Below, piece by piece: positions 28,981 through 29,993 of a stretch of DNA of 64,000 nucleotides (position 1 is the stretch's first letter; each line of letters opens with the position of its first letter). Under the pieces are notes generated by a model. The model searched no databases. It had not been told where the DNA came from and saw nothing but the letters and a program-made list of their open reading frames with translations. Source of the DNA: Escherichia coli (GTDB taxonomy: Bacteria; Pseudomonadota; Gammaproteobacteria; Enterobacterales; Enterobacteriaceae); assembly GCF_003334385.1 (NCBI RefSeq), contig NZ_QOWN01000024.1; one strand, given 5' to 3'. Position numbers and translations under genes: made by a program.

Positions 28981-29314
28981 AGACCGGTTGGTGGCAGTAC
29001 TGACCGGTCTGTGATGAAAGATTAATTTCACCTTAAATCCTGGTGCTGTTAGGATGCTGACGTTTTTCGGCTACACCATTCAGATTATGCAAATAAATAT
29101 CTCTGAATATAATATATTCATAGCACCCATAATTCATCCTGGGCGATAACTAAACCATTTTTGAGTAATAAATGAAACAACTGCAACACTCTTATTATTT
29201 CTGGAAAACGCCTCGCAAAAACAAAACAACATGCAAAAATCCGCTTTTTTTAAATGATTTTCCGGCGTAATTTTCGCACATACATTAATGAGTAATATAT
29301 GTAAGGTATTGGTA

Positions 29315-29533
29315 ATGGCGATGAATACGGTTTTTCTTCATTTATCAGAAGAGGCAATTAAACGGCTGAACAAGCTTCGGGGCTGGCGTAAGGTTTCACG
29401 ATCTGCAATTTTACGCGAAGCGGTAGAGCAATATCTGGAACGTCAGCAATTCCCGGTGCGTAAAGCAAAGGGAGGCAGGCAAAAGGGGGAGGTAGTTGGT
29501 GTTGATGATCAGTGTAAGGAGCATAAGGAATGA
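29315..29533 (+). CDS. yiiE: ribbon-helix-helix (CopG/Arc-like) putative regulator
   Basis: ORF 29288..29533 trimmed to MAMNTVFLHLSEEAIKRLNKLRGWRKVSRSAILREAVEQYL, 72 aa. Confidence 0.8.
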   Translation: MAMNTVFLHLSEEAIKRLNKLRGWRKVSRSAILREAVEQYLERQQFPVRKAKGGRQKGEVVGVDDQCKEHKE

Positions 29534-29774
29534 CAAAAATTTTTCATTCTTGAATATAAAAAACAGATGCCCTTATTCTGGTATTAATACAAGGCTGTTT
29601 TACTTGAACTTATAATAACTGCAACTGTTACATCATATCTGGAAAACGCCTCGCAAAAATAAAAAATGATGCGTAAATGAGCTTTCTTTAAAGATTCGGC
29701 AAGGGTACTTTTCTCTCCATAGATTCAAAAATGATATTGGCGAGATATTTATGAACTCTCTGGCAGGTATAGAT

Positions 29775-29993
29775 ATGGGCAGAATTTTACTCGATTTATC
29801 GAATGAGGTGATTAAGCAACTTGATGATCTCGAGGTGCAGCGTAATCTTCCTCGTGCGGACCTATTAAGGGAAGCGGTAGATCAATACCTGATAAATCAA
29901 TCGCAAACAGCAAGAACCAGTGTTCCTGGCATCTGGCAAGGGTGTGAGGAAGATGGTGTCGAATATCAGCGTAAGCTGCGCGAGGAATGGTAA
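29775..29993 (+). CDS. yiiF: ribbon-helix-helix putative regulator, paralog of yiiE
   Basis: ORF 29751..29993 trimmed to [39 protein letters not shown], 72 aa; shares the L.LS.E.IK.L...R...LREAV.QYL pattern with yiiE. Confidence 0.8.

Follow-up and report, generated by a model that had tools for sequence, protein, structure and literature searches.

The closest described precedents for the locus examined here are found among toxin-antitoxin (TA) genes and competence promoters. CRP-S sites are asymmetric sites to which the sugar-starvation regulator CRP binds with low affinity; activation of transcription there by cAMP-CRP depends on the competence co-activator Sxy (TfoX), and CRP-S promoters carry these sites at class-I-like distances. 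[quoted passage not shown] Sxy induces the TA genes chpSB, higBA and hokD, and a 2025 review of Sxy-induced TA genes names these three together with hicAB, while yiiE and yiiF are absent from it. In hicAB, a CRP-S promoter (P1) that the antitoxin does not repress is combined with an antitoxin-repressed promoter (P2), as Turnbull & Gerdes 2017 are summarized in PMC6957337. Activity of the Klebsiella pneumoniae VapBC system is reported in the literature (Kang et al. 2020). On the regulation of yiiE and yiiF themselves, our literature search returned nothing beyond the listing of YiiE among the targets of a SlyA genomic SELEX (in-vitro binding-site selection) and expression notes, such as the response of yiiF in Rho-inhibition data. 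The search found no link of either gene with Sxy; it did not reach Sinha et al. 2009, reportedly a sxy-overexpression microarray study.

The window, by which we mean the whole 64-kb stretch of E. coli DNA that was analysed, contains two units of about 440 bp (29176-29540 and 29614-29996) with one ribbon-helix-helix (RHH) gene apiece. Taken together, the evidence makes it probable, in our judgement, that this locus is a decayed chromosomal vapBC module accompanied by an ancient partial duplicate, in which a repeated 22-bp core serves as a Sxy-dependent CRP-S site. The units and their genes are as follows.

29176-29540, plus strand: unit A, control region and yiiE (direct repeat families D1 and D2, pairwise alignment).
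29316-29534, plus strand: yiiE, 72 codons, orphan RHH protein and VapB paralogue with a changed beta-strand and a decayed tail (Pfam RHH_1, E 1.6e-11).
29614-29996, plus strand: unit B, control region and yiiF (vapB), with vapB control regions of other genera as orthologues (repeats, alignment).
29751-29993, plus strand: yiiF, orphan VapB antitoxin of 80 aa, or 72 aa from the start at 29775 (matches to 2K5J and 7BY2_A).

A first-pass annotation had described a tandem duplication of an upstream element plus a gene in an AT-rich gap, with coordinates that proved accurate to within 1 nt, and the duplication is borne out by the direct repeats, by the alignments and by the core being present in both units. 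The core, TCTGGAAAACGCCTCGCAAAAA, has exactly two copies in the window (29200-29221 and 29638-29659), and no match to it with three or fewer mismatches arose in 100 dinucleotide shuffles. It is identical between the units at 22 of 22 positions, whereas its flanks share only 65-67%. Around the core there is a 100-nt direct repeat (29176-29275 versus 29614-29713) of 73% identity, and the two proteins, aligned pairwise as the annotation had proposed, share 41% identity across 56 residues (E 3e-12); a CTGCAAC motif lies at 29181-29187 and 29619-29625. Synonymous sites between yiiE and yiiF are saturated (pS 0.67). In unit A, 94 nt separate the core, which ends at 29221, from the yiiE start codon, and in unit B, where the core ends at 29659, the gap to yiiF is 91 or 115 nt depending on the start chosen, which is at 29775 (72 codons) in MG1655 and at 29751 (80 codons) in most RefSeq records. 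The GC content of the region is 31-40%, against 52-58% in the flanks.

The RHH fold and the antitoxin-like nature assigned to the two proteins both hold. The N-terminal strand and two helices of the RHH (CopG/Arc/MetJ) fold are present in each: YiiF is identical to PDB 2K5J and matches over its full length the VapB chain 7BY2_A ('CopG family regulator', E 3e-29), while for YiiE the AF2 model places two helices (12-25 and 29-50) before a disordered tail, and the top fold matches are PutA-RHH, CopG, VapB, TacA, ParD and Arc (TM up to 0.76, with E-values that are weak because the domain is tiny). Pfam RHH_1 scores YiiF at only E 0.0093, compared with 1.6e-11 for YiiE, although YiiF orthologues carry PF01402. 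Judged by homology, yiiF is an orphan VapB, with an N-terminal RHH DNA-binding domain and a C-terminal toxin-binding tail that is conserved. YiiE has the RHH domain only, its tail having diverged, and the DNA-reading beta-strands of the two proteins differ completely (MNTVFLHLS in YiiE, MGRILLDLS in YiiF).

The genomic context of yiiF in relatives points to the partner that it had. In Citrobacter, S. diarizonae and Klebsiella, the RHH gene between fabY and fdhE overlaps a downstream PIN gene of 124 aa, and the same gene pair is found in E. albertii and in E. coli 2016C-3878. The gene that follows the K. pneumoniae yiiF orthologue is 7BY2_B, 'Ribonuclease VapC' (E 4e-79); this K. pneumoniae pair is the VapBC that has been crystallised (7BY2). 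Among 5426 complete E. coli genomes, vapC is kept in 57, fragments of it are found in about 1700, and 3′ remnants are common in other E. coli genomes. In the window, what is left of it lies directly downstream of yiiF.

29993-30003, plus strand: 5′ remnant of vapC, about 11 nt, ATGGGAAAAAA (in intact strains ATGGCAAAAAG), from the alignment with E. coli 2016C-3878.
30038-30177, no strand assigned: REP-type repeats in place of the vapC interior (sub-threshold Rfam naRNA4/ES036, REP-derived; inverted repeats I2 and I11; alignment).
30231-30286, plus strand: 3′ remnant of vapC, about 56 nt, which has lost 15 nt internally and runs to the original stop (alignment with intact vapC).

Since only these two ends of vapC remain, the window holds the remnant of a TA system and not a functional one, whereas an adjacent, overlapping PIN toxin gene is present in the syntenic relatives. 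The statement that no partner toxin is evident is right for K-12, which has no intact one, but is to be qualified by the vapC remnants that flank the REP elements and by the intact vapC at this same site in other strains and genera. In K-12, vapC has been destroyed, REP elements having taken the place of its interior. No significant similarity to vapC was found in the sequence after the yiiE stop codon.

From the same alignments, yiiE is an ancient partial tandem copy covering the control region and vapB, and it is without counterpart outside Escherichia. Strong purifying selection acts on its RHH domain, where every one of 10 allele pairs shows 0 nonsynonymous against 1-6 synonymous differences (dN = 0), while the tail is relaxed (dN/dS about 0.2-0.7). 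Strict selection on the DNA-binding domain alone suggests that yiiE has been retained as a regulator and is not simply decaying. Following the duplication, the DNA-reading strand was altered and the toxin-binding tail lost, a DNA-binding protein being kept.

What the core itself does is best approached from its match to the CRP-S motif.

29199-29220, no strand assigned: CRP-S site A (predicted), 22-bp frame, 10/10 to the published E. coli motif, 16-mer TGGAAAACGCCTCGCA at 29202-29217.
29637-29658, no strand assigned: CRP-S site B (predicted), 22-bp frame, 10/10 to the published E. coli motif, 16-mer at 29640-29655.

Read on the minus strand, the 16-mer of site A is TGCGA-GGCGTT-TTCCA, and both cores fit T4G5C6G7A8-N6-T15T16C17C18A19 at all ten positions, including the diagnostic C6. 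The pattern has two matches in the window, which are the two cores, against 0.20 expected. The validated sxy site, ttttCGGAAAGAGCCTCGCAAATttt, is nearly identical to the core, and AACGCCTCGCAAA is common to ppdD and the K-12 core. Across about 12 genera we compared 27 regions upstream of vapB, of which 19 have the site at 10/10 and 6 at 9/10. C6 is invariant in all 26 orthologous sites and the two central positions of the 6-bp spacer vary most freely, so that the footprint is one of conserved half-sites around a variable spacer centre, at a fixed position upstream of vapB; the core likewise keeps a fixed distance from the downstream blocks and from the start codon across genera. In 337 kb of enterobacterial loci, 59 exact matches were found where 0.64 were expected, 49 upstream of an RHH gene and 10 upstream of a relE-like gene. 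In viral and phage contigs the exact motif had 51 matches, about the chance level by a rough estimate, and those inspected were in coding or unrelated contexts. The yiiE copy of the site is at 9/10 (TGGAT) in B2-type E. coli, where yiiE itself is conserved. We conclude that the 22-bp core is probably a CRP-S site and not an RHH operator. The AT-rich yiiE/yiiF region is probably silenced, and the predicted sites may therefore be used rarely.

Downstream of each core, two further conserved segments suggest how such a site could be wired.

29268-29273, plus strand: candidate -10 (TAATTT) of a distal yiiE promoter, in a conserved block lying 62-63 nt past the core's TGG.
29706-29711, plus strand: candidate -10 (TACTTT) of a distal yiiF promoter, the block that matches that of yiiE (GTGTAT(G/T)TTG in other genera).
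29287-29315, plus strand: proximal yiiE region GAGTAATATATGTAAGGTATTGGTA, candidate YiiE operator and ribosome-binding site, near-invariant among Escherichia yiiE alleles.
29729-29750, plus strand: proximal yiiF region, candidate VapB operator or proximal promoter (P2), a degenerate vapB palindrome over the Shine-Dalgarno sequence.

If the TA(T/A/C)(G/T)TT block at +65 to +71 of the core were a -10 element, albeit a weak one, the centre of the CRP-S site would fall near -70. By eye, a TAAGTT in the sxy promoter is about as far from the CRP-S site there. A scan in four species for consensus sigma-70 promoters found none before yiiE, yiiF or vapB. The proximal region of vapB contains a palindrome, TGATATAC-TGGAG-GTATATA, that spans the Shine-Dalgarno sequence; TGATATACTGGAGGTATATATG is near-invariant across 25 species, the K-12 version being GATATTGGCGAGATATTTATG, and the P2 region of hicA contains TTGATATACT. 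The proximal region of yiiE differs from the yiiF type. We propose that the core would drive, in a class-I-like manner and with Sxy and cAMP-CRP, a distal promoter with its -10 about 65 nt further on, and that each RHH protein probably represses its own gene at the region next to the start codon (the Shine-Dalgarno palindrome in vapB, a different sequence in yiiE). Such a two-tier layout would be as described for E. coli hicAB and H. influenzae toxTA, and the control scheme likely resembles that of hicAB, with a distal Sxy/cAMP-CRP promoter and a proximal antitoxin-controlled region.

The surroundings of the module allow a more ambitious proposal. In Citrobacter, Salmonella and Klebsiella the intergenic region upstream of vapB has an intact LexA box, CTGTATGGATATACAG, of which a trace is found in the window.

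29578-29593, no strand assigned: degenerate LexA-box relic CTGGTATTAATACAAG from the ancestral region between hydrolase and vapB, aligning with the intact CTGTATGGATATACAG.

In Trabulsiella and RIT714, deletions of the upstream hydrolase end just short of the core. In other E. coli strains the neighbourhood includes a relE-like/nadS operon with a 10/10 CRP-S site of its own upstream. The fabY-fdhE gap might accordingly be viewed as a hotspot for TA cassettes (vapBC, relE-like/nadS, yiiE) that reuse one portable control region, with YiiE neofunctionalised, although as a whole we hold this view to be unlikely. The control region, consisting of a LexA box for the divergent hydrolase and a CRP-S site for the cassette, would have been duplicated and recombined, the whole island would be wired to the competence (Sxy) and SOS programmes, and YiiE, far from a dying pseudo-antitoxin, would be a strongly constrained RHH regulator that acts under Sxy expression, its targets being for instance incoming DNA or other TA modules. 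The CRP-S copy before relE-like/nadS could also have been carried along with the ancestral hydrolase-proximal intergenic region, without regulating that operon.

Antitoxins of the RHH type normally repress their own promoters, and the core had been read in the first-pass annotation as part of an autoregulatory unit, that is, as an operator bound by YiiE and YiiF themselves. By eye, the two conserved blocks of the core lie one helical turn apart, with T-G-AA at an 11-bp period that two RHH dimers could fit, and at BLAST sensitivity the core is specific to the locus, with a median of 2 occurrences per E. coli genome and a maximum of 4. We nevertheless find this reading quite improbable. The core is kept at 22/22 in both units while the beta-strands differ at every outward-facing position (TVFLHL versus RILLDL), and it contains neither the repeated nor the inverted half-sites of an RHH operator. 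It also precedes the relE-like/HTH (nadS) operon, which has no RHH gene, and it decays in four taxa in which neither the VapB strand nor the proximal palindrome has changed (Buttiauxella, Cedecea, Kosakonia and RIT693). It is the proximal region, and not the core, that co-varies with the type of RHH domain, and the core is a 10/10 CRP-S match that is near-identical to the sxy site.

A small chance, of the same order, goes to CRP acting alone at an ordinary weak site, or to another host factor, independently of Sxy. The half-site TGCGA is indeed close to the canonical TGTGA, and in vitro E. coli CRP shows weak binding to CRP-S sites even when Sxy is absent; however, the second half is TTCCA, of the Sxy type, and not TCACA, and C6 is invariant. 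Moreover, the Sxy-dependence of the sxy promoter comes from its pairing of one good with one weak half-site, a promoter with two good half-sites being Sxy-independent (PMC6728893).

It is very improbable that the core has no current function and owes its identity between the units to gene conversion or recent homogenisation. The same 16 positions are kept in about 12 genera with a single copy, with a variable spacer centre and an invariant C6, the fixed spacing would be left unexplained, and the core copy left behind after a deletion of yiiF decays. The copies do recombine, as seen from chimeric alleles with the N-terminal part of yiiE and the C-terminal part of yiiF, from crossovers inside the core itself at loci L014 and L061, and from a microhomology deletion with one end in the core; homologous crossover or microhomology accounts for these rearrangement endpoints at or near the core, and a recombination or att-like site was rejected. 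The genes called at these loci showed no recombinase.

Hardly credible, finally, is a weak sigma-54 (-24/-12) promoter of the form TGG-N9-GC: its bipartite conservation with an invariant GG and GC at the exact GG-N10-GC spacing, the TCGC that the -12 element of glnAp2 likewise has, the lack of a consensus sigma-70 promoter and the position of the core as the most upstream element to survive deletions are outweighed by a score of 4.0 bits in a PWM built from 42 intergenic ChIP-seq sites (known sites at least 8.8, leave-one-out minimum 6.5), which ranks the core 267th of 127,968 window positions while glnAp2 and the fdoI site are recovered, and by the main text and Tables 1-2 of the ChIP-seq study, which list at this locus a single site, inside fdoI, and like the text and tables of the RpoN genomic SELEX do not name yiiE, yiiF or yiiD. 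Other candidates were discarded as well: a sigma-70 promoter within the core (by eye, nothing plausible as -35 or -10), a small ORF (on both strands, the short ORFs over the core lie in different frames between the units), an RNA (Rfam at E <= 1 gave only the REP-derived matches downstream), and Marbox, Ada, IHF, Fis, DnaA-box, PurR, Cra and ECF-sigma motifs, which, compared by eye, misfit the invariant positions.

The favoured reading, a CRP-S site upstream of a decayed vapBC module and of its duplicate, provides identities for poorly characterised K-12 sequence: yiiF as an orphan VapB, yiiE as a retained RHH regulator and an unannotated element as a predicted CRP-S site. It also predicts an inducing condition, the expression of sxy, for the otherwise silent yiiE and yiiF. 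If control by Sxy and CRP is true, the widespread enterobacterial vapBC joins hicAB, toxTA, higBA and chpSB among the competence-linked TA modules, the neighbouring relE-like/nadS system would probably join too, and the case for a still unexplained connection between DNA uptake and toxin-antitoxin systems would be stronger. The orthologous sites are in addition a resource for CRP-S studies, comprising about 25 natural variants of a perfect E. coli-type site in which the spacer varies mainly at its centre.

Among the known systems, hicAB is similar in being a type II TA module with a distal CRP-S promoter and an antitoxin-controlled element by the start codon, a two-promoter arrangement that is predicted for yiiE and yiiF, and the 9-mer (T/A)TGATATACT is found just upstream of the start codon in both. 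However, hicAB is toxin-first, encodes the HicA/HicB folds and is intact in K-12, whereas the yiiE/yiiF locus is antitoxin-first (RHH/PIN), has lost its toxin and has had its control region and antitoxin duplicated. In our scan the best consensus match upstream of hicA was 7/10, compared with 10/10 for yiiE and yiiF.

The sxy promoter shares the motif and its orientation, with the TGCGA half nearest the gene (CGGAAAGAGCCTCGCAAAT in sxy, TGGAAA(A/G)CGCCTCGCAAAA here), a TA(A/T)GTTG -10-like block at a similar distance, and an upstream LexA box for a divergent gene, which is sulA in one case and an alpha/beta hydrolase in the other (Citrobacter, Klebsiella, B2 E. coli). It differs in its weak half, TTCCG against the consensus TTCCA at yiiE and yiiF, and in the distance from the LexA box to the site, 34 nt against 56 nt at the vapB locus; the likeness described is one of single elements.

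The K. pneumoniae VapBC (7BY2/7BY3; Kang et al. 2020) is syntenic, lying between fabY and fdhE, and shares the RHH antitoxin tail ...WQxCEEDGxEYQRxLRxEW, the upstream CRP-S site and the proximal palindrome. In contrast, K-12 lacks VapC, the Shine-Dalgarno sequence and palindrome of yiiF are degenerate and its linker is altered, and yiiE has no counterpart in the K. pneumoniae system. The H. influenzae toxTA (HI0660/HI0659) is a competence-regulated TA operon under a CRP-S promoter. Its toxin family is not that of VapC; the neighbouring relE-like/nadS operon of other E. coli strains resembles it in layout, combining a toxin-first RelE/ParE-like toxin and an HTH antitoxin with a 10/10 CRP-S site. 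Lastly, as in the orphan antitoxins of degraded TA systems (PMC7354431), the antitoxin has outlived the toxin, remnants of which lie alongside, but the yiiE/yiiF locus is set apart from these by a second, older orphan, yiiE, in which strict selection acts on the DNA-binding domain alone.

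The window DNA is of the E. coli K-12 type, and its AT-rich fabY-fdhE gap (31-40% GC) holds, twice over, a near-identical upstream element followed by a ribbon-helix-helix (RHH) gene, as noticed in the first-pass annotation. The features are, by window position:

28462, end of fabY (yiiD)
28822-28938, truncated remnant (RefSeq pseudogene) of a 92-aa hypothetical protein (WP_001296612-like)
29200-29221, first copy of the 22-nt core
29316-29534, yiiE
29638-29659, second copy of the core
29751/29775-29993, yiiF (two start positions)
29993-30003, vapC 5′ remnant in K-12, 11 nt
30038-30177, REP/BIME-type palindromic repeats (sub-threshold Rfam naRNA4 and ES036) in the place of the vapC interior
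30231-30286, vapC 3′ remnant in K-12, 56 nt
30323-31252, minus strand, fdhE

The core, TCTGGAAAACGCCTCGCAAAAA, occurs exactly twice in the 64 kb, and no match with three or fewer mismatches appeared across 100 shuffles. It lies inside a 100-nt direct repeat of 73% identity, and in pairwise alignment the similarity continues past the repeat through both genes, whose proteins are 41% identical (E 3e-12); the units are a tandem duplication, each starting some 24 nt before the core and ending at the stop codon. Since yiiE/yiiF synonymous sites are saturated (pS 0.67) and the core flanks (24 nt before, 54 nt after) are only 65-67% identical between units, the 22/22 identity of the core indicates constraint and not merely youth.

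[quoted passage not shown] The core is its exact reverse complement, TGGAA-N6-TCGCA, scoring 10/10 at both sites, which are the only matches to the pattern in the window (0.20 expected). The experimentally dissected site of the sxy promoter reads ttttCGGAAAGAGCCTCGCAAATttt (PMC6728893), and AACGCCTCGCAAA is common to the ppdD upstream region and the K-12 core. Phylogenetic footprinting of 27 upstream regions of vapB (the yiiF orthologue) from about 12 genera revealed four conserved islands at fixed spacing:

Island 1, LexA-box-like CTGTATGGATATACAG, 10-17 nt from the start of a divergent alpha/beta-hydrolase gene
Island 2, the core, 56-57 nt beyond the LexA-box-like island
Island 3, GTGTAT(G/T)TTG, beginning 62-63 nt after the core TGG
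Island 4, TGATATACTGGAGGTATATATG at the ribosome-binding site, with the ATG at core +110/111

The CRP-S score was 10/10 in 19 of these regions and 9/10 in six; the diagnostic C6 was invariant across genera, and the two central spacer positions were the most variable. The exact matches in 337 kb of enterobacterial loci numbered 59, with 0.64 expected, and every one stood in front of a gene of one of two kinds, RHH in 49 cases and relE-like in 10. A BLAST search of 5426 E. coli genomes found the element to be nearly universal (5413 genomes; median two places per genome) and, at that sensitivity, restricted to this locus. On sequence grounds, the conserved element is a predicted CRP-S site and not an autoregulatory operator. 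The 34 Sxy-induced units that Sinha et al. 2009 reportedly describe may already include yiiE/yiiF; in the other literature searched, no paper linked these genes to Sxy.

The operator reading, which the first-pass annotation had drawn from the recurrence of the element before both RHH genes, was not supported. The two units have the same core even though the beta-strands of their proteins (TVFLHL and RILLDL) have no outward-facing residue in common; in Buttiauxella, Cedecea, Kosakonia and RIT693 the core has decayed, yet the VapB strand and the proximal palindrome are unaltered; and the RHH-domain type co-varies with the proximal region next to the start codon, not with the core. The core therefore cannot serve both proteins as a specific operator. 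A sigma-54 promoter fits the GG-N10-GC spacing but fails on score, with 4.0 bits where known sites reach at least 8.8, in a matrix that recovered, as positive controls, the fdoI site CTGGCGCGAATTCTGCA (31715-31731, minus strand; the intragenic IS47 of Bonocora 2015) and glnAp2 TTGGCACAGATTTCGCT (7370-7386, minus strand), and yiiE, yiiF and yiiD are absent from the text and tables of the sigma-54 ChIP-seq study and of the genomic SELEX study.

The rest of the earlier interpretation, namely the duplication, the RHH fold and an antitoxin-like nature, was borne out. YiiF, a weak Pfam RHH_1 match identical to NMR entry 2K5J, matches chain A of 7BY2/7BY3 over its full length (E 3e-29), and in K. pneumoniae the gene after its orthologue encodes chain B of 7BY2, "Ribonuclease VapC" (E 4e-79); this pair is the VapBC system described by Kang et al. 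2020. A YiiF orthologue with an overlapping 124-aa PIN gene occupies the fabY-fdhE site in Citrobacter, S. enterica subsp. diarizonae, Klebsiella and E. albertii, and E. coli 2016C-3878 has the order yiiE, vapB, vapC, fdhE with the same overlapping gene. Among the 5426 complete E. coli genomes, vapC persists in 57, and in about 1700 nothing more of it is left than the first 91 or the last 59 nt; in K-12, REP-type repeats separate the two remnants, while in B2-type strains a microhomology deletion beginning in the core has removed yiiF and most of vapC. Given the 7BY2 homology, the syntenic vapC of relatives and the K-12 remnants, yiiF is an orphan VapB antitoxin, and the lack of a partner toxin, rightly observed for K-12, is explained by loss of vapC. 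Where vapC is missing, the RHH domain and linker of YiiF alleles are somewhat relaxed and the Shine-Dalgarno/palindrome region is degenerate. Compared with locus L018 (3217-3262), changes in K-12 (29729-29775) and other vapC-less strains cluster in the ribosome-binding site/palindrome, the N-terminal extension (MNSLAGID vs MSAMAGMD) and the linker (a 12-residue version vs ENQSKTTISSAF), with the 200 nt upstream and the toxin-binding tail nearly unaltered. Three yiiF/vapB loci of E. coli or Enterobacteriaceae, with the enterobacterial core, sit on contigs labelled Bacillus coahuilensis, "uncultured Robinsoniella" and Chryseobacterium sp. 18061 (L021, L022 and L042; protein identities 99%, 91% and 68%) and are probably assembly contamination.

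YiiE matches RHH_1 (E 1.6e-11), and its AF2 model (extended N-terminus, two helices, disordered tail) has RHH proteins as best fold matches. YiiE-type proteins were found in Escherichia only, and a search downstream of yiiE found no vapC trace. In ten pairwise comparisons of five alleles (E. coli and E. whittamii) the 42-codon RHH domain had no nonsynonymous and 1-6 synonymous differences per pair; the tail, from which the W/Y/L/W anchors of the VapB tail are gone, had dN/dS of about 0.2-0.7. The tandem copies recombine (L012, L013, L014, L016, L017 and L061). Recombination between yiiE and yiiF has produced single genes that join a YiiE N-domain to a YiiF tail, and in E. albertii such a chimera is partnered with an intact vapC. 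A crossover within the core, seen in L014 and L061, fuses the copy of the relE-like operon to that of yiiE.

That further copy of the core is found some 140 nt ahead of the relE-like/nadS operon of other E. coli strains, E. albertii and Pseudocitrobacter, and may simply belong to the original, hydrolase-proximal copy of the intergenic region. The operon, absent from the window, is toxin-first (103-aa RelE/ParE-like toxin, NadS-family HTH antitoxin; L002:2392-3135, L012:2201-2944, L027:1243-1700), has its own palindrome TACGTCAATGACGTA besides the 10/10 CRP-S site, and recalls H. influenzae toxTA, which is competence-regulated. In other strains an intact gene for the WP_001296612-like protein, which matched no NCBIfam family, sits between nadS and yiiE. 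The near-consensus LexA box precedes a LipP1-like hydrolase (L005:3812-3827, L036, L045, L002 ~2320-2335), and its distance to the CRP-S site is constant in many genera and B2 E. coli; in K-12 what is left of the box is a degenerate relic ahead of yiiF (29578-29593). Where the hydrolase is present, the CRP-S site could also serve its divergent promoter. The K-12 sulA-sxy intergenic region is alike, with LexA box CTGTATGGATGTACAG 34 nt from the sxy CRP-S site instead of 56-57 nt.

Thus yiiF is a new orphan VapB, yiiE an RHH paralogue and the cores predicted CRP-S sites, all of kinds already known. The AT-rich setting suggests that the locus is normally silent, and two further observations point the same way: SlyA genomic SELEX lists YiiE, and yiiF responds in Rho-inhibition data. 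CRP-S promoters undergo class-I-like activation by cAMP-CRP and Sxy; were the conserved TA(T/A/C)(G/T)TT block at core +65..71 the -10, the CRP-S site would be centred near -70; in the sxy promoter, TAAGTT is found about as far from the site. RHH autorepression would most likely act at the proximal region, the best candidate, which contains TGATATACT, an extended -10-like 9-mer also present at hicA P2. This 9-mer stands just upstream of the start codon in hicA (L113:4255-4264) and in vapB of about 25 species (L036:2468-2476 and relatives), where it is part of a palindrome that encloses the Shine-Dalgarno sequence; a direct repeat, TGATATA-N6-TGATATA, takes the place of the vapB palindrome in Franconibacter, Buttiauxella and Trabulsiella.

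Sxy overexpression has been reported to induce chpSB, higBA and hokD. Upstream of the Sxy-responsive K-12 genes higB (L117:3590-3615, minus strand) and hicA (L113:4150-4175) we found TTCTGGAATC in both, with sites TGGAA-TCGCGC-TTCCA and TGGAA-TCTTCC-TTCCT, respectively; they have the TTCCA-type half in common with the yiiE/yiiF cores but lack the clean TGCGA half. For hicAB, PMC6957337 reports a CRP-S promoter P1 that is not repressed by the antitoxin and a proximal P2 that is, and the same two-promoter architecture has been proposed for H. influenzae toxTA. By analogy, the putative control layout of yiiE and yiiF, a distal CRP-S site and a proximal antitoxin-controlled region, would be of the hicAB/toxTA type.
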